Below are positions 11,889 to 24,313 of a DNA stretch of 64,000 nt, one piece after another. Every line of letters starts with the position of its first letter. Within the stretch, counting starts at the first letter, position 1. Source of the DNA: a virus; IMG/VR virus record IMGVR_UViG_3300020204_000006. One strand, given 5' to 3'. Both the position numbers and the translations under genes were made by a program. The notes under the pieces were generated by a model. That model was given only the letters and a program-made list of their open reading frames with translations. It was not told where the DNA came from and did no database searches.

Positions 11889-12664
11889 TAATGAAAAAAG
11901 AAAAATTAAAAAAAGAAACTACGGAAGTAGGCACTGTTGAGTGGTCAGCTTTTTCCGTAAAAAAGAAGGATGAAGACGTATTGTCTTGGTCTCTTCAGGA
12001 CTTTATATCATATATAAAGCAAATATATTATTCAAAATATTGTACTCCACTTGCATATTCTCCAGCATTTACAAATATGGAGATGTCTAAATTAAGAGAC
12101 ATATTATCTCCTCATTCTAAAAAAAATAATGAGAATATTAATATGTTCATTAAAAACTATGTAGATTGGTATTTTGACAACAAGATATATCAGGATCATG
12201 TTAAGTATAAGACATGGTCTTTTAAAAATTTAAATAAACAATCGACAATATCTTTATTTTTAATTAATTCCGGATTAACTAGTTCTCCTCAGCCCATTAC
12301 GGTAAAAGAAAAAATTAAAAGAAAAAGCACTAGCTCTCTTGTTCTTAAGAAGTATATGAGCGGTGATGAAAAAGTTTTTATTAAAGATTACGGAATAATA
12401 GTCCCGTTTGCTTATCTTTTTGCTGCTTGTAATATGGATTGGCCAAGTGCACTGTCTTATATTAAGAGAGGTATCAGGAAATGTATAGATTCATCTATAA
12501 GCTTGGAGTTTATAGTTGATGTAACAAACCAGTATGGTCCCTATGACAAATTAAAAAAATTGGACATGTCTGGTCTTATTTCTGAGTTGTCATCAGAATT
12601 TAAATTCCCTTTTGCGAAAGTGAGGCTTTACGGTAATGTCAGAGAAGATATGGAAAATAAATAA
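11885..12664 (+). CDS. Hypothetical protein
   Basis: 259-aa ORF coupled to both neighbours; TTG 11885 or ATG 11891. Confidence 0.6.
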   Translation: MIMKKEKLKKETTEVGTVEWSAFSVKKKDEDVLSWSLQDFISYIKQIYYSKYCTPLAYSPAFTNMEMSKLRDILSPHSKKNNENINMFIKNYVDWYFDNKIYQDHVKYKTWSFKNLNKQSTISLFLINSGLTSSPQPITVKEKIKRKSTSSLVLKKYMSGDEKVFIKDYGIIVPFAYLFAACNMDWPSALSYIKRGIRKCIDSSISLEFIVDVTNQYGPYDKLKKLDMSGLISELSSEFKFPFAKVRLYGNVREDMENK

Positions 12665-13136
12665 TCAAATTAGAAATAGATTCGTTTTTGTAATAGACGA
12701 TGATGGTAGAAAAATTGGCTCTATGATAATAGATAGTGCTATCGATTATGCACGCAATAAGGGTATGGACCTAGTTCAGGTAAGCGAAGATTCTTCTTCG
12801 GAAGTTGTGTGCAGGGTCGCAGATTACGGAAAGATGAAATACCAATCTCAAAAAAACAAAAAGAGTGGCAATACCTCTTCTTTTAAGAAAAAAGAGATGT
12901 TTATTTCTATGACGATATCTGATCATGATTTAGAGACAAAGCTCAATAAGGTTCGTGAATTTATGAGCAAAAAATATGAAATAACTTTTGGAATAAAATT
13001 CAGAAGTTTTAAGGAAAGAAACAGTACTGAACAGGCTAGGCAAAAAATAATCAAGAGCCTTGATTCTCTTGGTGTTTCTCAGGATGGCCTTAAGTACAAC
13101 GTTACACACGAGAGGATATCGGTTGTTTTCAGATGA
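12636..13136 (+). CDS. infC: Translation initiation factor IF-3
   Basis: INNQIR..V.VIDDDG...G...A...A...GMDLVQV...VCRVADYGKMKY (IF3-N); KE...ISDHDLETKL...F (IF3-C). Confidence 0.9.
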   Translation: MSEKIWKINNQIRNRFVFVIDDDGRKIGSMIIDSAIDYARNKGMDLVQVSEDSSSEVVCRVADYGKMKYQSQKNKKSGNTSSFKKKEMFISMTISDHDLETKLNKVREFMSKKYEITFGIKFRSFKERNSTEQARQKIIKSLDSLGVSQDGLKYNVTHERISVVFR

Positions 13137-13925: not shown

Positions 13926-15377
13926 ATGAATTCTTCATATAAACTACTGCACATTCTTCTTAACGATCTTTCTAAGGTTGAGAAGCTTAGTCATGACACA
14001 AGAGTGAATGAATTTTTTTTGGCAGATTATGAGTCTAATATATATAGGGCCATGATCTGGTGTTTCAATAAGAATAAATTACTTACGGAAGAACAGCTTG
14101 AATATTTTTTAAGAGAAGTTAGAGCTTCTTCTCCTGTATACATTTCTGAATGTGTTTCTATACTTAGAGAGATATCTTTTTTACAAAACATAAAGATTGA
14201 TGATTTTGATGTTATTTTTGCAGATTTAGAAAAAGAATTTATTACTAGATCAATTAAAAAAGGTCTTAAGGAATTAAAAGAAAAAGTTGAGCCTGATTTT
14301 AAGCAAAATGTTTTAGAATTCTGCAAAAAACTAGAAGATGTTGCATCTTCTTCAAATAAAGAATCAAATTTTGAGTTTTTTGATTCAGCGGAAAGTTATT
14401 TAAATATAGTTGATAAGCTAGAAAAGCAGAGTAAAGAGCCAGATAATAGAATAGCTTGTGGCATTAAGGAGATCGATGACTGTATGGTTGTCGGATTTAG
14501 GCCAGGTACTCTTACTTTAACTGTTGCTGATGTTGGTGGCGGTAAAACCACCATGATGCTCAATATGGCTTTTAATTTATTTAAAAGAAATCACAACGTT
14601 CTTTTTATTCCTCTGGAAATGCCTTTCGAGGAAATATTTAAAAAATTTATTTCCAGAGAGTGTCTTGTTGAGTTTGAAAAGCTGGCTCGTCCTCAACTAT
14701 TAGTAGATTCGGACTGGGCAATGATAAGGCAGCACGCAGAAGCTTTAAATAATGCAAAATCTAAATTTATGTGGGCTGATGTTAAAAGTAGACCCACCGT
14801 ATCTGAAATAAAAAGACAGATAGAGAGAAGGCTTTCTTATTTTAAGCCTGATATTATAGTTATTGATTATATAGCAAATATAAAACCGGAATCTAATTCA
14901 GATAATTGGCTTGCCATTGGAGATATACTAAAAGAGTTGAGAGCATTTGGCAAAAAACATAATTTTGCCATACTAAGTGCTGCTCAGTTAAGTAGAGATG
15001 GAATTAAAAAAATGAAGGGAGACAAGGATTCAAACAAGGCTCCTGGATCAGAGGACCTAAGAGGATCTCATGAATATAGTGCAGACGCTGACAATATATT
15101 TGCTCAAGTTCCATCTCAAGAGGACCCAAATAGAAAAATATTACTTTATTGTATAAAAGCTAGATACGGAAAGAAAACTTTTGGTGATAAAAATTATGCC
15201 ATTATGGATTTTTATCCAGAATTTTCTAAAATAGAATCTAGTAATAACTATTCTTTTGATTCCGATAGCGATGATTTAAAGGCTCAGATAGATGAGATGT
15301 TTAAATCAAAAGTTAATCAAAGTGAAGAATCTTCAGATTCTAAGTCTTCGGAAGATTTTGATTGGTTCTCTTTATGA
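13926..15377 (+). CDS. dnaB: Replicative DNA helicase DnaB
   Basis: CGIKEID, ADVGGGKTT, PLEM, IVIDYI, AAQLSR, DLRGS...SADAD, KARYG. Confidence 0.92.
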   Translation: MNSSYKLLHILLNDLSKVEKLSHDTRVNEFFLADYESNIYRAMIWCFNKNKLLTEEQLEYFLREVRASSPVYISECVSILREISFLQNIKIDDFDVIFADLEKEFITRSIKKGLKELKEKVEPDFKQNVLEFCKKLEDVASSSNKESNFEFFDSAESYLNIVDKLEKQSKEPDNRIACGIKEIDDCMVVGFRPGTLTLTVADVGGGKTTMMLNMAFNLFKRNHNVLFIPLEMPFEEIFKKFISRECLVEFEKLARPQLLVDSDWAMIRQHAEALNNAKSKFMWADVKSRPTVSEIKRQIERRLSYFKPDIIVIDYIANIKPESNSDNWLAIGDILKELRAFGKKHNFAILSAAQLSRDGIKKMKGDKDSNKAPGSEDLRGSHEYSADADNIFAQVPSQEDPNRKILLYCIKARYGKKTFGDKNYAIMDFYPEFSKIESSNNYSFDSDSDDLKAQIDEMFKSKVNQSEESSDSKSSEDFDWFSL

Positions 15378-15913
15378 GTAAAAATTCTTCCCAGCAAGCT
15401 GACGTGTTCTTTACTGTAAAGAAACTGTTATCTATAGACGAGTTTTTACAACAAAGGGGTTGTTCTCCATCCAGAAGATATGGAGACAAATCTGTATATT
15501 GCTGCCCAATACACAAAGATAAAACTCCTAGCTTTTATGTTTATAAAAAAAGCGATGGTGATGATTTTTATTGCTTTGGTTGTAAAAAAGGTGGTAGCGC
15601 AGTACACCTAAAAAGCTATCTTGATAATGAAAAATTCGGTAAAAGTTTATTATATTTTTGCGATAAGCTTAAAATTAAAACAAACTCAAAAATTAATATT
15701 GAAGACATATTAGATGATGAGCTATTTTCATTTAAAAAAGAAAGCTTTGATATAGACAAAAAATATGAATTATGTCTTTTTAGATATTCTTCTTCCCTTA
15801 ATATGGGTAACATATCAATATCTGATTTTCTAAACACTATTTCTGTTTTGCAGAAAATCTATGAAGAAAGAGACGAAATAAGAATAGGTAAAATGTTAAA
15901 TGGAAGAATTTGA
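15374..15913 (+). CDS. dnaG: Stand-alone DnaG-type CHC2 zinc-binding domain (primase N-terminal part)
   Basis: CPIHKDKTPSF...FYCFGCKKGG; ATGA overlap with dnaB stop; no TOPRIM domain in this ORF. Confidence 0.85.
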   Translation: MSKNSSQQADVFFTVKKLLSIDEFLQQRGCSPSRRYGDKSVYCCPIHKDKTPSFYVYKKSDGDDFYCFGCKKGGSAVHLKSYLDNEKFGKSLLYFCDKLKIKTNSKINIEDILDDELFSFKKESFDIDKKYELCLFRYSSSLNMGNISISDFLNTISVLQKIYEERDEIRIGKMLNGRI

Positions 15914-16325: not shown

Positions 16326-16907
16326 ATGCCAATAATATCAAAAAAACAAGAAATAAAAATGTCTTTTACTTCAATAATTCTTGATGGCGATGATGAATCA
16401 GAAATAGATTTTGATCTTTATGATAAAAATGGTAAACTTTATATAAAAGCATTTAAGAACAAAAAAACTATTTTTGATTGGCCCTTTGAGTCATTTCAGG
16501 AAATAGCAGATTTTATATTTGGAAAAATGAGTCTAATTTTTCCATCAAAAAACAGAGTAAATAAAAATATAGATTTCCCGCAAAAAGATAATTTATTTGA
16601 TGCTTCTCAGTCTCCTACTCCTAGTGTAATTCAGAATTCTGTTCCTGATAATTCTACTGCTAGTTTTGCTGGTGACGTATCTGATTTTGAAAATTATCTA
16701 AAGAACAAGAAGCCTTCTTTTTATGGAAACTCCTCATCACTTATATCCAATCCGGCATTTAGGGCAGCCATGAACTCTGATGAAAAAAATAATACAGTTG
16801 AAAAAGAAAGAATAAGTAGAATAGTAAATGGCATGGATGCTATAGAAATAGATTTAAATGACGACATTCAGGATGAAGCAGTTATAGAACAACAAAATGG
16901 AATATAA
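16326..16907 (+). CDS. Hypothetical protein
   Basis: 193-aa ORF with low-complexity central part. Confidence 0.55.
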   Translation: MPIISKKQEIKMSFTSIILDGDDESEIDFDLYDKNGKLYIKAFKNKKTIFDWPFESFQEIADFIFGKMSLIFPSKNRVNKNIDFPQKDNLFDASQSPTPSVIQNSVPDNSTASFAGDVSDFENYLKNKKPSFYGNSSSLISNPAFRAAMNSDEKNNTVEKERISRIVNGMDAIEIDLNDDIQDEAVIEQQNGI

Positions 16908-17142
16908 ATGTAATGTAAAACAGTTGACAAAGATATCAAGTGATGAGGGCTCTGGCAATTCTTTATCTCTTTGTTCTTCTTGTAAAAATTTAGATTGTAG
17001 GAACCCAATAGAATTTGTTAGTATTTCTGTGTTCGGAATAAATATGAAGGGTAGATTTTTTAAATCAAACAGTAATTTTTATTCTGTAACTTCTTGTGAA
17101 GGTTATCAGAAAGAGATCAAAAAAGAGGAAGAAGATGAATAA
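16897..17142 (+). CDS. Small Cys-rich hypothetical protein
   Basis: CSSCKNLDC...SC; overlaps both neighbours (11 and 8 nt). Confidence 0.5.
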   Translation: MEYKCNVKQLTKISSDEGSGNSLSLCSSCKNLDCRNPIEFVSISVFGINMKGRFFKSNSNFYSVTSCEGYQKEIKKEEEDE

Positions 17143-18424
17143 TTCTTGTTTTTGCCATATACATAATCACACTGAATTTAGTTCTTTTGATGGATTAAAT
17201 AAGGTTTCCGAGTTTCCTATGCTTGCAAGAGAAATGGGTTTTAGGGCTCTTGGTATAACGGATCACGGAAATATTGCTGGTACTTTAAAGTTTTTTAAAG
17301 AGTGTACAAAAACACATGATTCTGATGGCAATATTCTTCCTTACGATCCAATAACTCCCATACTTGGATGTGAATTTTACTTATGCAAAAATCGTCATGC
17401 TAGAAGTAAGGCAGAACAGCCTGACGGCAGAAAGGGCAATAGACATATACTCCTTCTGGCAAAAAATTTTGCTGGCTATAGAAACCTGTGTGCTCTTAGT
17501 GAGATTAGTTGGACTGAGGGTTTTTACGGTGATCCTAGAATAGATTTTGATCTTATTGAGAAGTACCGCGATGGCCTGATGTGTTCTTCTGCCTGTCTTA
17601 GTAGTGTTATAAATTCAAATTTACTTCATGGAAGATACGATATTGCAAAAAAGGTTGCTACTAGATTAAAAGATATATTTGGTGAAGATTTTTATCTTGA
17701 AGTCATGTTTCATGGAATAGACGCAGAAAGATATATTATTCCAGATATATTTAAGCTTGGTTCTGATCTAGGTATAAAATGTATAGGGACAAACGATTGT
17801 CACTATGCAAAAAAAGAAGATGGTAAAAGTCAAGAAATACTTATGTGTATGAGCACAAGCAGGTGCATCAAGGACACTAATAGATTAAAATTCCCATATC
17901 ATGAATTCTATTTAAAAAACGCGGATGAAATGTACTCTGTTTTTAAAGGCTATGAGCATGCTCTTCATAACACAAACGAAATTTACCAAAAGGTAAATAT
18001 AGAAGATTTAAAAATTAATTTTGGAGGAATGCGACTTCCAAAGTTTCCATTGCCAGATGGCTTTTCTGATCCGTATGAATACTTAAAGTTTCTTGCTTTT
18101 GAGGGTTTGAATAGGTGTAATTTGCAAAATTCTGAAAAGCATGTCGCTAGGTTAAACATGGAGCTTAACGACGTAAAAATTGCAAAAGATAGTAATAATT
18201 ATGACTTTGCAACATATTTTTTGATAGTAAGAGATTACATAAATTTTGCCAAAGATAATAACATTATGACTGGATGCGGAAGAGGTTCTGGATTTGGAAG
18301 TCTTCTTTTAAAGTGTCTTGGTATAACTTATGGAGTTGACCCTCTTGAATACGATTTGCTTTGGGAAAGATTTTTAGGTTTTGATTCAAAAAAATTTGTC
18401 AAGATGAGTGATTTTTATGAATGA
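17135..18424 (+). CDS. dnaE: DNA polymerase III alpha, N-terminal part (PHP domain plus first palm/thumb segment)
   Basis: HIHNHTEFSSFDG, ITDHGN, GCEFY, RHILLLAKN, TNDCHY, GRGS, LGIT.GVDP...LLWERFLG, then stops. Confidence 0.92.
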   Translation: MNNSCFCHIHNHTEFSSFDGLNKVSEFPMLAREMGFRALGITDHGNIAGTLKFFKECTKTHDSDGNILPYDPITPILGCEFYLCKNRHARSKAEQPDGRKGNRHILLLAKNFAGYRNLCALSEISWTEGFYGDPRIDFDLIEKYRDGLMCSSACLSSVINSNLLHGRYDIAKKVATRLKDIFGEDFYLEVMFHGIDAERYIIPDIFKLGSDLGIKCIGTNDCHYAKKEDGKSQEILMCMSTSRCIKDTNRLKFPYHEFYLKNADEMYSVFKGYEHALHNTNEIYQKVNIEDLKINFGGMRLPKFPLPDGFSDPYEYLKFLAFEGLNRCNLQNSEKHVARLNMELNDVKIAKDSNNYDFATYFLIVRDYINFAKDNNIMTGCGRGSGFGSLLLKCLGITYGVDPLEYDLLWERFLGFDSKKFVKMSDFYE

Positions 18425-20360
18425 AAAAATAAAAGAATTATTATTAGAAATAAAAAAGAAGTGCAGTGATGCATCAAAAATAGAAATATGCACAAAAGAA
18501 TTAATGGATATGGATGAAACAGATTCTGTTTCTAAGGGGACTGTATTGGATGAATTTTATAAAGTTTGGAAAAACAAAAAAGATCAACTTGGTGTAAAAA
18601 ATGAAATAAATTCATGGTCAGCATATTACTTGGATATTACTTCTGTAAAACCAAAAGAAAACAATATTTTTTTGCCATCAAGGCGCATATTTGCTAGAGC
18701 TGGATTTCCTGATATAGATGCCGATTTTGAATTTGAAAAAAGACAACAAGTTTACGATTATTTAATAAATAAGTACGGTAGAGAAAGAGTTGGCAATATA
18801 GGGACATATGGAACATTAAAATTAAAATCATACGTTACTAGGGTGGTTAAGGCCCTAGACTTGGCAAATAGTTTTCATAAAGGCAAAGATTCATACGTTA
18901 AAGAAAATAACATTTTAGTAAGAAAAATTATAGACTCTCTTCCTGAGCAAAAAGGAGCCTTTTTAAAGGTATGGGACGAAGATGGAGATGAGCACGTCAT
19001 TAAGAGTCTTCAGGATGCATATGACCATTGCCACTCTTTTAAGTCTTATTTAGATGAATTCCCAGATATAAAAGTGCATGCTGATGCTATAGAGGGTTTA
19101 TCTAGTAATTTTGGTGTTCACGCTGCTGGTGTAGTTATAAGCGATGATCCCTTAAAGACAATAGCTCCTTTGAGATCGACATCTGGTGGCTCCTCCGGTA
19201 AATCAGTTGATTATGCCACTCAATTTCCATATGAAGATTTGGAATATCTTGGTCTAATAAAATTTGACATACTTGCGCTTAGCACCTTATCAGTAATATC
19301 AAAAACTGTTAAATTAATTAAAGAAAGAAATTCTATTGACTTGGATATGGAAAATCTTAATTTAAATGATGAAAGAACTTTTGAGCTTTATAGATCTGGT
19401 AATTTAATAGGTGTTTTCCAGTGTGAAGAAAAAGGCATGCAGAAAACGATGATGGAAATGAGAGTTGACAGATTTGAAGATATATGTGCAGGTATAGCCT
19501 TGTTTAGGCCTGGTCCCATGGCTTCAATTCCAAAGTATTGTTCAAGAAAAAAGGGTAAGGAAAAAATAGAATATTTTCATCCTTCAATTGAGCCTTTTGT
19601 TAAAGACATTCTGGAGCCAACATATGGTGTTCTCTGTTATCAAGAGAGCATTATGCAGCTTTGCAATAAGCTTGCTGGTCTTTCAATAAGCGATGGATAT
19701 GTTATAATAAAAGCAGTAGGTAAAAAGAAAGAAGATTTACTCAAGAGGTACAGGTCAAAATTTGTACATGGTTGTGTTAAAAATGGTATAAAAGAAAAAA
19801 TTGCAGGTGATTATTGGGAAAAATTTATTATGCCCTTTGCTGCTTATGGTTTTAATAAGTCTCACTCATTTTGTTATGGTTTATTAAGTTATCAAACTGC
19901 CTATTTAAAAGCAAATTTTCCACATGAATTTATTCTTAGCTATTTGAATGTAGAACTTGGGCAAAAGAAATGGGAGAGAATAGAAATTTTAGAAAAAGAG
20001 TGTCAAAGAATGGGTATTAAAATTTCTTCTAGAAACATAAATGTATCAAAAGAAGAATATTCAATGAGAATGAAAAAGGATTTAAGCGGAGAAATTTGTC
20101 TTTTTGTTCCTCCATTATATTGCAAGGGTATAACTGCTGAGGCGGTCTATGATATTTGCAGAAACCAGCCTTTTAAAGATTTGAAAGATTTTGCTTTCAA
20201 GACATCTAAGTCTAGTGTCGATATAGAAAGTCTTCAAGCTCTTGTTGACAATGGGTATTTCCCGGGCGTAGAAGACGTGGTTTCAAAATTTGAAAATTAT
20301 AGAGAGTATTTTATTAAATCTAAAAAAAGAGGAGTCAGCGGATTAGATCTTTTTGGCTGA
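18417..20360 (+). CDS. dnaE: DNA polymerase III alpha, C-terminal part (catalytic palm, fingers, HhH)
   Basis: FPDIDADF, GVHAAGVVIS, LIKFDILAL, GVFQ, ALFRPGP, YQE, YGFNKSH, YLKANFP. Ends after the HhH-like region. Confidence 0.92.
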   Translation: MNEKIKELLLEIKKKCSDASKIEICTKELMDMDETDSVSKGTVLDEFYKVWKNKKDQLGVKNEINSWSAYYLDITSVKPKENNIFLPSRRIFARAGFPDIDADFEFEKRQQVYDYLINKYGRERVGNIGTYGTLKLKSYVTRVVKALDLANSFHKGKDSYVKENNILVRKIIDSLPEQKGAFLKVWDEDGDEHVIKSLQDAYDHCHSFKSYLDEFPDIKVHADAIEGLSSNFGVHAAGVVISDDPLKTIAPLRSTSGGSSGKSVDYATQFPYEDLEYLGLIKFDILALSTLSVISKTVKLIKERNSIDLDMENLNLNDERTFELYRSGNLIGVFQCEEKGMQKTMMEMRVDRFEDICAGIALFRPGPMASIPKYCSRKKGKEKIEYFHPSIEPFVKDILEPTYGVLCYQESIMQLCNKLAGLSISDGYVIIKAVGKKKEDLLKRYRSKFVHGCVKNGIKEKIAGDYWEKFIMPFAAYGFNKSHSFCYGLLSYQTAYLKANFPHEFILSYLNVELGQKKWERIEILEKECQRMGIKISSRNINVSKEEYSMRMKKDLSGEICLFVPPLYCKGITAEAVYDICRNQPFKDLKDFAFKTSKSSVDIESLQALVDNGYFPGVEDVVSKFENYREYFIKSKKRGVSGLDLFG

Positions 20361-20661
20361 AAAACTTATGAATATAAAAACAAATCTATCTTTAGAAAGA
20401 AAAATATCTACTGGTCAATATGAAAATATAACAATTAGAATGGAAATGGATTCGGATATATCATCCGATCACATAGATGAGTTTAATAACAAATTTGATT
20501 TGTTCAGGGCTCAATTCTTAAATAAATTTTCAGAAACTCAGGTAAAAGTTATAGAGGAGCTTTCTATACAGGAAAAAGTTGCTTTTTTTAATTCTCCCAA
20601 CAATTCAAATAAGACTTTTAAATTAAATGAAATGGATCTAAAGGAGGTGTTAGGTGATTGA
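20353..20661 (+). CDS. Hypothetical protein
   Basis: TTG 20353 or ATG 20368; ISTGQYENITI segment; coupled to neighbours. Confidence 0.55.
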   Translation: MAEKLMNIKTNLSLERKISTGQYENITIRMEMDSDISSDHIDEFNNKFDLFRAQFLNKFSETQVKVIEELSIQEKVAFFNSPNNSNKTFKLNEMDLKEVLGD

Positions 20662-21688
20662 CAATAAGGAACTTGAAGAAATTTTCGGTATACCGCAAGA
20701 TGGATCAAATATATCAGAAGAGTCTCATGACTCTGCGTATATAGATGTATGTGGCTCTAGGAGTAACAATTCTTTTGATGATGAATTGTTGAAATTACAA
20801 AAAGACATGGAGCAAAAAAATGTCAAACCTTCAGCGAATGAAAATGTTTGTATCAGTAATGAGACAGAGTATGAAAAGCAAAATCAAAATGATATCAATA
20901 ACCATAGCGGGTTCGAAGGTAGTTCGGCTTGCGTCTCCGAATCCGATGATTTTTTGGGAGACAAAATTCTACAGCATGAAAATAAGAAGAAAATGGATGA
21001 TAGCGGGGAAAAAATTACAAATGCTTCAGTCTTTTCTGCCCAAAAGAAAAAAGAAAGATGGAAATTAGAAAATTCAGATTTGACTTTTGAAAAATTTTAC
21101 ACCTATAAAAGAGAGGCATTAAGTGATTGGTTACTAACCGGAGGTGCTATAGATTTTGATTTCATAAATAGTCAGCTTATAGAGTCAAGAGTTGATCTTT
21201 CAAATGTTAATTTTGCTGATTTTTCAACACTTTTTGATATATTAAAACAAATACAAAGATATAAAGATAATATTACACAGCTGGAACTTATTTGCAATAA
21301 TCAGTATTTTTGCTGGAAGCGTGCTATTGATCTCTTTCAGGGCGTATTGGCACAGTGTTATTATGAAAAACCAGCAGCAAAACAAGATGGTGTTGTGTAT
21401 GAGCATATGAATGATTTTGTTAGTTATTTTACAAAGATTGAATCTCTTCACCACAACATACAATCTGTAATTAAAAATTTAGATCAAGCTTTTGATACTG
21501 TATCTAGACAAATAACTCTTTCTATGCCTTCTAGGGATTACGAATCCGTAGAAAATAGGACAAACAAAAATATTTCTGTTGGTACAGAAAAAAATGATAT
21601 AAACAAAATAAACATTAACAGACAGCCGGTTCGTAATTCTGTCGATACTATTAAGACAGGAACTGTTGACTGGATCGTCTTCAAATAA
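20654..21688 (+). CDS. Hypothetical protein with acidic disordered N-half and coiled-coil C-half
   Basis: GTG start after GGAGG; helical C-half sits directly upstream of SSB and RecA. Confidence 0.6.
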   Translation: MIDNKELEEIFGIPQDGSNISEESHDSAYIDVCGSRSNNSFDDELLKLQKDMEQKNVKPSANENVCISNETEYEKQNQNDINNHSGFEGSSACVSESDDFLGDKILQHENKKKMDDSGEKITNASVFSAQKKKERWKLENSDLTFEKFYTYKREALSDWLLTGGAIDFDFINSQLIESRVDLSNVNFADFSTLFDILKQIQRYKDNITQLELICNNQYFCWKRAIDLFQGVLAQCYYEKPAAKQDGVVYEHMNDFVSYFTKIESLHHNIQSVIKNLDQAFDTVSRQITLSMPSRDYESVENRTNKNISVGTEKNDINKININRQPVRNSVDTIKTGTVDWIVFK

Positions 21689-22383: not shown

Positions 22384-23580
22384 ATGAAATCAAAAAATAT
22401 AGGTCTAGAAAATCTTAAGGGATTTAAAATTGGTGCTGATTCAGATGTTAAGGATCTAATTCCTTCTGGTCACGCCGAATTAGATCACGCTATTAGTTCT
22501 GGTATAGTTCAAGGAACCTCCAAATTTAAATTTGGAGGTTTTCCACTTGGAAGAGTTATACTTTTTTATGGAAATGAAGGTAGCGGAAAAAGTTCTCTTG
22601 CATACAGATTGGTTGGTAGTGCTCAAAGAATGAATTACAGGTGTGCGTGGATTGACACAGAGCATTCTTTTAGTGATCAGCTTGCTCTTGTTAATGGTGT
22701 TGATAAGTCTGTTCTTTATTACAATAATTTGATTAATGAGGAAAATCCAGATGAAATAGCAACAGCAGAGAATGTAATGGATACCATGATATCTGCTTGC
22801 TCTAGTGGTCAAATTAATGTTATAGTTCTTGATTCTATAGCTAATCTTGTGCCATATCGTGTTATGGAAAATGGTGCAGACAAGGAAACGGTCGCTGAGC
22901 TTGCTAGAGTTCTTTCTAGAACGATGGGAAAGCTTCTTAGTTATGCGGCAAGCAATAATGTTCTTGTAATACTTATAAATCAACTTAGAGAAAAGGTTGG
23001 TGTGATGTTTGGCAGTCCAGACACTATGCCTGGTGGCAAGGCTCTTAAACATGCTTGTTCTTGCATATTGAAGGTTACCAAACTTGAAAGTTCTTCTCAC
23101 TGTATTTCTATACAGGATGATGGTGGCACAGAAAGAATAATTGGCAAATATTCAAGTGTTATAATTGAAAAGAACAGATTTGCTAAGCCGCATTTTGGAT
23201 CTATGAAAGTTCCAATATACTATGAGCCATACTTTCCTAATATAGAAGATGTTTGCTTTAATTCTGGAAGAGATCTTAAGATAATTAAGGTTCGTAATAA
23301 TGTATATTCTTGGAAGAATCTTAAATCTGAGGGCAGATCTTCTTTTGTTGAAATGATTAAAAATCCAGAAGTTATCGATGAGTTAGTTTCATCAATAAAA
23401 GATGAAGCAAAAAAGCAATCTATGAGTTTGCCTATAGAGATTATCAATTTTGATATATCTGATTATAAAAAGAACTCTAAAAAGTTTGTTAATAAAAAAC
23501 CTGTATCAGATGAAAAAGAAGAAATAAAAAATGAAGTCTCTGAAGAAGTAGAAGATTTTGATATAGATTCAAATGAATAA
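22384..23580 (+). CDS. recA: RecA recombinase
   Basis: IPSG...LD.AI, GGFPLGRV, GNEGSGKS, WIDTEH, VLDSIA, INQLREKVGVMFGSPDTMPGGKALK, EKNR. Confidence 0.93.
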   Translation: MKSKNIGLENLKGFKIGADSDVKDLIPSGHAELDHAISSGIVQGTSKFKFGGFPLGRVILFYGNEGSGKSSLAYRLVGSAQRMNYRCAWIDTEHSFSDQLALVNGVDKSVLYYNNLINEENPDEIATAENVMDTMISACSSGQINVIVLDSIANLVPYRVMENGADKETVAELARVLSRTMGKLLSYAASNNVLVILINQLREKVGVMFGSPDTMPGGKALKHACSCILKVTKLESSSHCISIQDDGGTERIIGKYSSVIIEKNRFAKPHFGSMKVPIYYEPYFPNIEDVCFNSGRDLKIIKVRNNVYSWKNLKSEGRSSFVEMIKNPEVIDELVSSIKDEAKKQSMSLPIEIINFDISDYKKNSKKFVNKKPVSDEKEEIKNEVSEEVEDFDIDSNE

Positions 23581-24313
23581 TTTTTCTAGTGTAGAAAGAA
23601 GTAAAATATTTAATCTCTCTCAAGAGTCCCTTCACGAAGATAGTGAGGGGGCTTTTTCTTGTAGAGAATATTTAAAGTCTAGAGGGGTATCAAAGCAGTG
23701 TGCACATGACTTCTGTCTTGGCTATGTACCAGAAAGAGTCGGCCACTATCTTTCAGACAGGCTAATACTTCCTCTTAAATATGCCAATGGAGAGCTTGCG
23801 TACTTGACTTCTAGAAAGTTTAGAGATGCTTCACTTAATAGAGGGCATTGGCATGAAAGCTTTGATAAAAGTTTGTTTTTATTTTCTCATCCAAATTCTT
23901 TTTTGACTTCTTTTGAAAAAAAATATTCCATAGTTGTTGAGGGTCAATTTGATTGCATGTCTGTATCATCTGTTGGCTTTCAAAATACTTATTCCATATT
24001 GGGTTCTAATTTTTCTAAAAAACAATTACTTCTGCTTTTCGGAATATCTAAAAACATAATACTTTTTTTTGATAATGACGAAGCTGGTGAGGCTGCAAAT
24101 AAAAAGGTTTTTGATATATTTTTTAAAGAGAAGATGTTTAAAAAAGGTTATAGTTTAGCAAAATGGCCAAAATATCCTGAAAAAGATCCAGATGATTTGT
24201 GTCGATCAAGAGGTAGAGAAAACTCTATTAAATACATTAGTGGAGTAGTTGATAAAATACTAGGAGAAATCAATGTCAGAAGAAATAACGAAACAGGTAT
24301 ATTCGATTTCTAA
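23573..24313 (+). CDS. dnaG: DNA primase catalytic core (TOPRIM) without zinc-binding domain
   Basis: YLKSRG...LGY, RLILP, IVVEGQFD, LGSNF, FFDNDEAG, KDPDD. Confidence 0.88.
   Translation: MNNFSSVERSKIFNLSQESLHEDSEGAFSCREYLKSRGVSKQCAHDFCLGYVPERVGHYLSDRLILPLKYANGELAYLTSRKFRDASLNRGHWHESFDKSLFLFSHPNSFLTSFEKKYSIVVEGQFDCMSVSSVGFQNTYSILGSNFSKKQLLLLFGISKNIILFFDNDEAGEAANKKVFDIFFKEKMFKKGYSLAKWPKYPEKDPDDLCRSRGRENSIKYISGVVDKILGEINVRRNNETGIFDF

Follow-up and report, generated by a model that had tools for sequence, protein, structure and literature searches.

We propose, with a probability of roughly 0.8, that two overlapping viral genes encode the halves of a DnaE-type replicative polymerase, which would work as an obligate heterodimer, held together non-covalently, whose active site is composite. 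The genes lie in a 64,000-nucleotide stretch of DNA (the window; IMG/VR record IMGVR_UViG_3300020204_000006) whose source is probably a huge phage. The two polypeptides would associate without covalent joining. ORF1 would contribute the PHP domain and that half of the Pol-beta-like palm which binds the nucleotide (R383/G384/S385 and R412), and ORF2 the metal-binding D99, D101 and D284, the Arg/Lys pair of the fingers, a DNA-binding HhH domain and a clamp-like C-terminus. Because the nucleotide-binding half sits on one chain and the metal-binding Asp residues on the other, the active site would be composite. It is most likely that the two proteins join without splicing, since the same arrangement occurs in thousands of uncultured relatives. 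An earlier note on this DNA had claimed two chains, no intein and a palm built from both, and the conserved layout and invariant motifs support that claim comparatively.

To our knowledge, a replicative polymerase is nearly always one catalytic chain, and split dnaE genes, as in cyanobacteria, are re-ligated by an intein. Here, a large uncultured clade of huge phages (contigs up to ~500 kb) has a near-complete DnaE as two proteins, and the nucleotide pocket and the metal ligands are on different proteins. The clade includes natural controls, namely fused forms with and without an insert, split forms that overlap and split forms with genes in between. It also raises testable questions: how a Pol-beta-like active site tolerates a cut, how assembly is regulated (for example, whether the supply of the proofreading domain is coupled to polymerase activity) and how the gene fission originated. 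Current annotation labels each half either "PHP domain protein" or "DNA polymerase III alpha, partial"; the halves might also be taken for pseudogenes.

The two genes and their junction

In the ORF list, ORF1 starts at an ATG (17135; alternative upstream GTG at 17096) and so does ORF2 (18417; alternative GTG at 18408). The features discussed below are the following:

17135..18424, + strand: ORF1, N-half of DnaE (429 aa), with PHP and nucleotide-binding palm subdomain (ORF list, Pfam, Taq alignment)
17156..17707, + strand: PHP domain, ORF1 residues 8-191 (Pfam PF02811, E 6e-42)
18080..18394, + strand: nucleotide-binding palm subdomain, copy 1, ORF1 residues 316-420 (PF07733 positions 2-100)
18377..18421, + strand: ORF1 C-terminal tail, residues 415-429 (F416, F421, D426 and F427 conserved)
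18417..18424, + strand: 8-nt stop/start overlap ATGAATGA, ORF2 in +1 frame (same in four independent contigs)
18417..20360, + strand: ORF2, C-half of DnaE (647 aa), with head, catalytic palm, fingers, HhH and clamp-like C-terminus
18417..18695, + strand: ORF2 head, residues 1-93, helical, putative copy 2 (degenerate) of the palm's nucleotide-binding subdomain
18708..18728, + strand: catalytic strand PDIDADF, with D99/D101 equivalent to E. coli D401/D403 (Taq alignment)
19266..19268, + strand: third catalytic Asp, D284, equivalent to Taq D618 and E. coli D555 (Taq alignment; invariant)
19284..19787, + strand: fingers domain, including R377 and K378 (PF17657, E 9e-50)
20013..20264, + strand: HhH / beta-binding-type domain (PF14579, E 9e-6, score 26.2 bits, cut-off 25.6)
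20337..20357, + strand: C-terminal clamp-binding-like motif, ...D-L-F-G (conserved pattern)

ORF1 ends with WERFL, 15 further residues and a TGA. The ORF2 ATG starts 8 nt before the end of this stop, in the +1 frame relative to ORF1; the overlap in different frames described in the earlier note is thus borne out by the ORF list and the junction sequence. The same note had placed the catalytic motif stretch about 95 residues into ORF2, which is accurate: PDIDADF starts at residue 98, and the ARAGF stretch therefore begins at A93. The overlap probably couples translation, so that the two chains would be made together. Just upstream, the ORF2 frame is shut by a TGA at 18405-18407, 10 nt before the ATG. 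Two homopolymer runs adjoin the junction, A7 (18386-18392) and T5 (18412-18416). Slippage at the A7 run was rejected, as the downstream TGA shuts the ORF2 frame, and so was read-through of TGA as Trp, which fails to fuse the frames because an in-frame TAA comes next.

Homopolymer runs beside a junction could point to a sequencing or assembly error, or the split could be a recently broken pseudogene, but there is hardly any chance of either. Samples in NCBI, ENA and Logan yield 21 contigs that carry a 96%-identical relative. The 429-aa and 647-aa ORFs and their 8-nt overlap recur in all four contig loci fetched (different samples and pipelines), whose junction DNA equals that of the window over 18369-18399 and 18401-18445. 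The split is not an assembly error, because the junction recurs in 21 independent contigs; the indel error that the earlier note had considered, one that fuses the frames, is absent from the four fetched loci. A broken gene is also at odds with a split that is kept down to ~50% identity and with catalytic residues that are invariant in both halves.

Two halves of a proposed composite active site

Pfam assigns to ORF1 the PHP domain and positions 2-100 of PF07733, and to ORF2 positions 69-260 of the same family, the fingers and HHH_6. All nine canonical PHP metal ligands are present in ORF1 (H8, H10, D19, H44, E80, H104, C154, D221 and H223) and invariant in 63 sequences of the N-half family. 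By analogy with M. tuberculosis DnaE1, this domain is probably an active proofreading exonuclease. The palm segment of ORF1 aligns to Taq 398-456 (hhalign against the bacterial segment, E 8e-19). It carries GRGS at 18278-18289 (residues 382-385, including R383, G384 and S385) and WERFL at 18362-18376, where R412 corresponds to E. coli R390. G382-G386, W410, R412, F413 and L414 are invariant across the N-half family.

In ORF2, R94 is the equivalent of R396, and P98, D99, I100, D101, D103 and F104 are invariant in the C-half family, as are R377 and K378. The Arg pair equivalent to R377/K378 contacts dNTP (PMC4374717). The structural match of the HhH region reaches E. coli residue ~911-927, and the end of ORF2 is equivalent to Taq ~975 or E. 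coli ~889-927. ORF2 stops where E. coli alpha carries its internal QADMF motif. Split and fused members of the clade alike keep a KKG-x-x-x-x-D-[LIM]-F pattern at their C-terminus, with F646 of ORF2 invariant, which suggests that the ORF2 C-terminus may bind the clamp. The OB fold and tau-binding domain are absent, with no PF01336 match in ORF2, unlike in bacterial homologues.

The Taq alignment agrees with the distribution of residues given in the earlier note, with GRGS and the R390 equivalent in ORF1 and the R396 equivalent and three Asp in ORF2. As for the roles ascribed to them in E. coli, the literature consulted supports those of G363/S364, R390 and D401/D403/D555, but does not confirm dNTP contact by R396; it also supports R362 alongside R390. 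Neither half looks vestigial, because GRGS, WERFL, the PHP ligands, the Asp triad and R377/K378 are all invariant.

Break site, putative duplicated segment and relatives

The cut falls in the flexible linker of a clade-specific insert of ~110 aa, which separates ERFL from the DxD strand. The spacing from GRGS to PDxD is 39 in bacterial DnaE, and 49-50 or 152-160 in the one-chain orthologues of the clade. The earlier note had described an unbroken ERFLNPER-to-PDxDxDF stretch in intact DnaE; this is correct for bacterial DnaE but not for these one-chain orthologues. Similarly, the view that DnaE is split through the active site holds in that palm parts lie on two chains, but the break itself is in the insert linker, outside any conserved motif. 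AF2 models one of the fused orthologues with a pLDDT of 94, and the model's sole weak stretch (pLDDT 73-74), residues 431-450, is at the position of the window's cut. The residues equivalent to the ORF1 tail form a beta-strand (421-424) in this model, just before the weak linker. Judging from secondary structure and pLDDT, the tail is a predicted beta-strand that would dock onto the C-half.

When ORF2 is modelled alone, helices 3-15, 19-34, 43-53 and 67-71 of its head have pLDDT values of 86-93, and residues 91-100, which include the catalytic strand, drop to 41; the same stretch reaches 89-92 in the fused model. In phmmer, ORF2 residues 65-97 align to Taq 429-461, a stretch that the ORF1 tail matches too. 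In hhalign, the head matches bacterial DnaE over 14 columns (probability 94%), extending to 67-76 collinear columns (93.5%), and the clade's own N-half tail over only 10 columns (E 0.02). On this short signal (~93-94% in hhalign), the head resembles a degenerate duplicate of the closing subdomain of ORF1. The core of this copy is at 18612-18653 (residues 66-79), and GRGS is lost. Whole-model structural alignments of ORF2 placed the head on no known fold and did not superpose it on the canonical nucleotide-binding position.

Tentatively, and with rather less than an even chance of being right, we suggest that a tandem duplication in the palm enabled the split, copy 1 keeping the dNTP pocket and copy 2 becoming a docking module. 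Having lost the pocket, copy 2 would remain joined to the metal-binding strand and serve for docking within the protein itself, which would allow the enzyme to be cut and re-joined repeatedly in evolution. If true, this could explain why split, fused-with-insert and fused-without-insert forms are interleaved on the tree. It would also represent a natural case of duplication-degeneration-complementation within a single enzyme domain, and a replicase in two ready-made pieces, with an active site that takes shape only upon assembly. In the heterodimer proposed above, the likely docking surfaces are the predicted beta-strand tail of ORF1 and the ~90-aa helical head of ORF2; we infer this role, together with physical association and polymerase activity, from sequence and models.

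Each half has thousands of homologues, and the two-gene layout is kept from 96% to about 50% identity. N-half homologues are 430-480 aa long (100% coverage) and C-half homologues 645-680 aa. Clustered at 50%, they reduce to about 20 representatives in a compact clade, which stands clear of bacterial DnaE (~40% identity). The search for the same breakpoint in related phages, which the earlier note had called for, thus finds the layout in thousands of homologues, with variable spacing. One relative (L001) has an 8-nt overlap, a TTG start and no homopolymer run at the junction. Two others have spacers with closed frames, of 4 nt (L009) and of 14 nt with its own AGGT (L008), and in two ~500-kb contigs (L003, L004) three genes, 1.6 kb, lie between the halves. 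No junction sequence or recoding site is common to the relatives. One-chain orthologues, with or without the insert, share the gene order DnaE, RecA, Toprim. Those with the insert match the ORF1 tail followed by the ORF2 head collinearly, and those without copy 2 (991-999 aa) keep copy 1. Fission and fusion appear to be labile, because one-chain and split orthologues are interleaved on the tree. Among reference collections, the INPHARED nucleotide search and a peptide-pattern scan of IMG/VR gave no match, and protein searches of the GenBank phage set returned only ordinary DnaE at <=41% identity and no clade member.

These relatives also bear on whether the two frames end up in one chain. A +1 frameshift or transcriptional slippage at the T5 run would yield a chain of ~1,075 aa: a 1-nt skip at TTT_T links ORF1 ...S-D-F to ORF2 M-N-E-K, and a natural fused orthologue has the same reading at that spot. 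We nevertheless regard joining at the level of expression as very unlikely, given the relatives that lack the run, carry closed-frame spacers or have three genes in between. In the window, the zero frame has no rare or stop codon after the slip site, T5 is short for slippage, the RNA fold around the junction is ordinary (z -1.5) and the upstream TGA shuts the ORF2 frame. Neither a shared junction sequence nor an Rfam element, as in a prfB-like programmed +1 frameshift, was found; Rfam gave no match in 17000-20500 at E<=1, a search that covers group I/II introns as well as recoding elements. A minor fused product, collinear with the fused orthologues, may still arise in this particular phage through a +1 slip at T5. 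We give almost no chance to an unrecognised or atypical split intein that would ligate the two proteins once translated, or to the break being an intein scar. Atypical split inteins with very short N-parts do exist, and the clade is an intein hot spot with six sites (ORF1 ~79, ~155, ~222 and ~384; ORF2 ~427 and ~484), some of those at ~484 (NKSH motif) looking like split inteins. However, all of these are at conserved catalytic motifs and none is in this variable linker, and in fused orthologues the insert is read without interruption. The earlier note had seen no intein end motifs, and no intein or Hint Pfam family matches either ORF at E<=0.01. In addition, the tail and head minus the DnaE-like part are far too short for a HINT fold, and splicing would leave the same helix twice.

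A different possibility is that the halves work independently, ORF2 being self-sufficient with copy 2 and ORF1 a separate PHP exonuclease with a vestigial palm fragment. Copy 2 does have some invariant residues (E28, N62, P79 and R89), and proofreading by a separate subunit has a precedent in E. coli epsilon. We consider this unlikely, as copy 2 has no GRGS and so no nucleotide pocket, whereas the invariance of copy 1 in ORF1 would be unexpected for a vestige. The one-chain orthologues that retain copy 1 in the absence of copy 2, and the poorly ordered catalytic strand of ORF2 modelled alone, likewise argue against it.

Known two-piece polymerases

Of the published systems, the one nearest to the window is a split "minimal" Pol III alpha encoded by group 2.2 (T4-like) jumbo phages (Iyer, Anantharaman, Krishnan, Burroughs and Aravind, 2021; Viruses 13:63; PMC7824862). 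It consists of an N-terminal NTP-binding and a C-terminal Mg2+/DNA-binding protein without inteins, which the authors predict to reconstitute one enzyme. Compared by published description, the boundary between NTP-binding and Mg2+/DNA-binding parts is of the same kind as in the window. However, the jumbo-phage enzyme is reduced to a minimal core, lacks PHP and the other DnaE domains, is encoded by genes distant from each other and accompanies a family B polymerase. The window has a near-full DnaE (PHP, palm, fingers and HhH) in overlapping genes within a DnaB/primase/RecA module, and no family B polymerase was seen among the window ORFs scanned. Its break is in an insert with an apparently duplicated segment, and fused orthologues exist.

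Fold and domain order are those of M. tuberculosis DnaE1 (PDB 7pu7/5lew) and Thermus aquaticus (Taq) Pol III alpha (2hpi/3e0d), against which the fused-orthologue model gives Z scores of 43-48 over ~880-898 aligned residues. The nine PHP ligands, GRGS, the Asp triad and the basic pair of the fingers are shared with bacterial DnaE1; the two chains, the ERFL-to-DxD insert and the lack of C-terminal OB fold and tau-binding domains are not. As a member of the C family, the window's polymerase thus has the PHP domain, the GS pocket with three Asp, the fingers and the HhH, but neither the OB fold/tau-binding domain nor a single-polypeptide catalytic core.

The cyanobacterial split DnaE (Ssp/Npu) and the "fractured" metagenomic dnaE genes, which include marine phage-like loci (Dassa et al., 2009; PMC2677866), resemble the window in having dnaE as two genes. 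Their halves carry split inteins and are trans-spliced, and the cyanobacterial break is elsewhere, whereas the window has no intein: its ORF1 tail is 15 aa long and its ORF2 head aligns to DnaE itself. The intein at ORF2 ~484 in some clade relatives is an additional break, distinct from the window's. Nothing on a split DnaE was found in the Pseudomonas phage PaBG paper or in a 2026 survey of bacterial polymerases.

A Bacillus phage whose two DnaE CDS flank an HNH gene was set aside, being split elsewhere, with an N-piece of 691 aa. The replicative family B polymerase of Methanothermobacter thermautotrophicus is reportedly made of two polypeptides without an intein, as Kelman and colleagues are said to have shown biochemically in 1999. 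That enzyme is archaeal and differs in family and fold, and the heterodimer of the window is proposed from sequence comparison and models.

A DnaE divided between two genes

The DnaE polymerase of this virus is split in two frames, with the GRGS side in ORF1 and the catalytic aspartates in ORF2. The earlier note had described it accurately, since the gene layout, the Pfam matches, the alignment to Thermus aquaticus Pol III alpha (Taq) and the published residue roles agree.

The two genes and their junction in the window
17135-18424: ORF1, 429 aa, counted from an ATG that is also the start in relatives
18417-20360: ORF2, 647 aa, +1 frame
ORF1/ORF2 overlap: ATGAATGA
18405-18407: TGA that shuts the ORF2 frame just upstream

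In the Pfam scan, the Pol III alpha palm model matched ORF1 with positions 2-100 and ORF2 with positions 69-260; ORF1 also has the PHP domain, and ORF2 the fingers and HHH_6. In the alignment to Taq, GRGS and ERFL lie at the end of ORF1 (matching Taq 398-456), the DxD strand corresponds to ORF2 residues 98-104 and the third catalytic Asp is ORF2 D284. In E. coli Pol III alpha, G363/S364 make the nucleotide pocket, dNTP contacts come from R362/R390 and from the pair R709/R710 of the fingers (finger role: PMC4374717), and D401/D403/D555 are the catalytic residues. The literature thus agrees with the roles that had been assigned to G363/S364, R390 and the three aspartates.

An N-half of 96% identity is present on 21 contigs, whose samples and assemblers differ. 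All four loci fetched encode 429 and 647 aa with the same 8-nt overlap and identical junction DNA, and the split is kept in distant homologues. Homologues of either half number in the thousands: those of the N-half (430-480 aa) cover ORF1 fully at identities down to ~53%, and those of the C-half (645-680 aa) reach down to ~48%. Clustering at 50% identity reduces the clade to ~20 representatives, clearly apart from bacterial DnaE (~40% identity). No members were found in the GenBank phage collection or by a peptide-pattern scan of IMG/VR, and no published description of this split-DnaE clade was found in the literature.

Junctions between the DnaE halves at relatives' loci
L001: 8-nt overlap, TTG start
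L009: 4-nt spacer
L008: 14-nt spacer with its own AGGT
L003/L004: three genes, 1.6 kb between the halves (~500-kb contigs, one named as circular)

Because these junctions vary and may even include intervening genes, it is certain that part of the clade makes two separate polypeptides, and no recoding signal is common to the junctions compared (L001, L003/L004, L008, L009 and the window). The three genes separating the halves in L003/L004 (7439-9015) include one for a methyltransferase-like protein, and two N6/N4 DNA methyltransferases are encoded just upstream of the N-half.

The insert that carries the break

One-chain orthologues with 50-57% identity to ORF1 also occur inside the clade, one of them surrounded by the same gene order. 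GRGS and DxD lie 39 residues apart in bacterial DnaE; the spacing is 49-50 in the "short" type of fused orthologue (991-999 aa) and 152-160 in the "long" type (1082-1117 aa), and fused forms of intermediate spacing were also found. As the ORF1 tail (the residues after WERFL) followed by the ORF2 head (residues 1-93) is collinear with the long fused type, the sequences place the window's break within a clade-specific insert of ~110 aa. An AlphaFold2 model of a fused orthologue (pLDDT 94, pTM 0.90) has the DnaE fold (Z 43-48). Its confidence drops only at residues 431-450, the linker in which the break of the window falls. In this model the tail forms a short strand just before the linker, and four helices separate the linker from the catalytic strands.

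A quick maximum-likelihood tree was built from the N-terminal region that all these forms have in common (67 rows, intein-bearing sequences left out). In it the clade had 99% support with fused forms basal, and the short-tail split group including the window was monophyletic (94%). Split forms are mixed with fused-long and fused-short ones, a pattern that needs 11-12 state changes; therefore, fission, fusion and insert loss look evolutionarily labile.

Two segments match Taq 429-456: one is the end of ORF1, the other ORF2 residues 65-92. In profile comparisons, the ORF2-head family matched the bacterial segment over a 14-column core (probability 94%, E 1e-7), and the match extends collinearly over 67-76 columns at 93.5%, from ~50 residues before GRGS through ERFL. 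GRGS itself has been lost from this second copy, which gave a weak signal against the clade's own first copy at the end of ORF1. These comparisons moderately support the ORF2 head being a duplicate of the nucleotide-binding palm segment.

Two types of N-half tail occur. In the short type, which the window has, 14-18 aa follow ERFL; the long type measures 38-57 aa, is acidic and carries the conserved terminal motif G-G-V-D-R-Y. Most of the clade has the long tail, in N-halves of 459-483 aa (e.g., P0040, P0048 and P0067; L003 and L008); neither the subclade of the window nor the fused forms have it. This long tail is reminiscent of the C-tails of SSBs, which are also acidic, carry a terminal aromatic residue and serve to dock on partners.

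Two chains and a putative composite active site

Judged by their conserved residues, neither half is decaying. The N-half family keeps invariant the nine PHP metal ligands, G382-G386, W410/R412/F413/L414 and also F416, D426 and F427 of the tail. Invariant in the C-half family are D99, D101, D284 and R377/K378, together with E28, N62, P79 and R89 of the head. ORF2 lacks OB and tau-binding domains and ends at a C-terminal motif, kept across split and fused members, that looks like the clamp-binding motif found internally in E. coli alpha. When ORF2 was modeled alone, its helical head was confident and did not superpose on the canonical nucleotide-binding position, and catalytic strand residues 91-100 had pLDDT 41 versus 89-92 in the fused model, a hint that the C-half needs the N-half.

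We favor a model in which one message would yield both chains through coupled translation, and the ORF1 tail strand and ORF2 head would mediate their association. Together the chains would form a composite, presumably active site, with ORF1 contributing the triphosphate pocket and PHP proofreading, while ORF2 would bring in the metals and the basic pair of the fingers, bind DNA and contact the clamp. That the halves act independently instead, each as a protein of its own, is improbable: GRGS is missing from copy 2, whereas copy 1 is invariant and is retained even by fused orthologues without copy 2. A recoding event that joins the frames at the T5 run (18412-18416) is less probable still. Its product would be sensible, and around this run the fused orthologue that was modeled reads like the window after what is equivalent to a single-base frame change; however, no stimulator, Rfam match or unusual structure was found there, and the mechanism is inapplicable to most relatives. 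An error or pseudogene is effectively excluded for a junction and halves conserved to this extent.

Reconstitution of one chain by trans-splicing is likewise effectively excluded. The earlier note had claimed that there is no intein at the split, and indeed the Pfam scan found no intein family in ORF1 or ORF2, and no relative has one at the break. Relatives carry up to two inteins per protein at ORF1 positions ~79, ~155, ~222 and ~384 (within GRGS) and ORF2 positions ~427 and ~484 (within NKSH). The clade's DnaE is an intein hot spot, the relatives concerned being P0241-P0300, P0124, P0152, P0153, P0181, P0183, P0191, P0221, P0223 and P0233. An intein origin of the split, or trans-splicing, is disfavored because all six sites fall in catalytic motifs that are conserved, and the break in a variable linker. 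P0181, P0183 and P0191 terminate in the N-part of an intein ~120 aa past residue 484, pointing to a split intein and a polymerase made of three pieces in some relatives.

In the literature, the nearest parallel is the split "minimal" Pol III alpha that was predicted for T4-like jumbo phages, likewise an NTP-binding protein plus a Mg2+/DNA-binding protein (Iyer et al., 2021; PMC7824862). Unlike that form, the enzyme described here is a near-full DnaE with PHP, appears to be its module's replicase, is cut within an insert holding a duplicated segment and has natural fused orthologues.

The replication module

Assignments across the scanned ORFs place the split DnaE within a replication module. 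The window has ~30% G+C, nearly all its ORFs of at least 120 aa are on the + strand, and three giant ORFs lie at its end.

Other genes of the module, in order
before the DnaE pieces: SF2 helicase
12636-13136: IF3-like protein, 166 aa (IF3_N, E 1e-21; IF3_C weak, below cut-off)
13926-15377: DnaB
15362-15913: primase zinc-ribbon protein
between the zinc-ribbon gene and the DnaE pieces: three small ORFs
between DnaE-C and the SSB-like gene: two ORFs without assignment
before RecA/UvsX: SSB-like protein
22384-23580: RecA/UvsX
23573-24313: Toprim primase core

The ORF after DnaE-C (20353-20661, 102 aa; ~97-116 aa in relatives) and the next one (20654-21688, 344 aa; ~344-416 aa in relatives) stand at the same places in all relatives examined. 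Pfam and PHROG gave no match for either, and both are candidate accessory replisome subunits.

The DnaG-type primase is likewise in two genes, 7.7 kb apart: the zinc-ribbon gene overlaps the end of dnaB, and the Toprim catalytic core gene overlaps the end of recA. This arrangement is also present in three relatives (L001, L007 and L010). Overlaps of 4-20 nt are found between many neighboring genes of the module, and the ORF upstream of ORF1 (16897-17142) overlaps its start (17135) by 8 nt. From the gene layout, translational coupling looks to extend across the whole module. The IF3-like protein is kept in the 70%-identity relative L001, and a phage IF3 could bear on TTG/GTG start use and coupled reinitiation in these operons.
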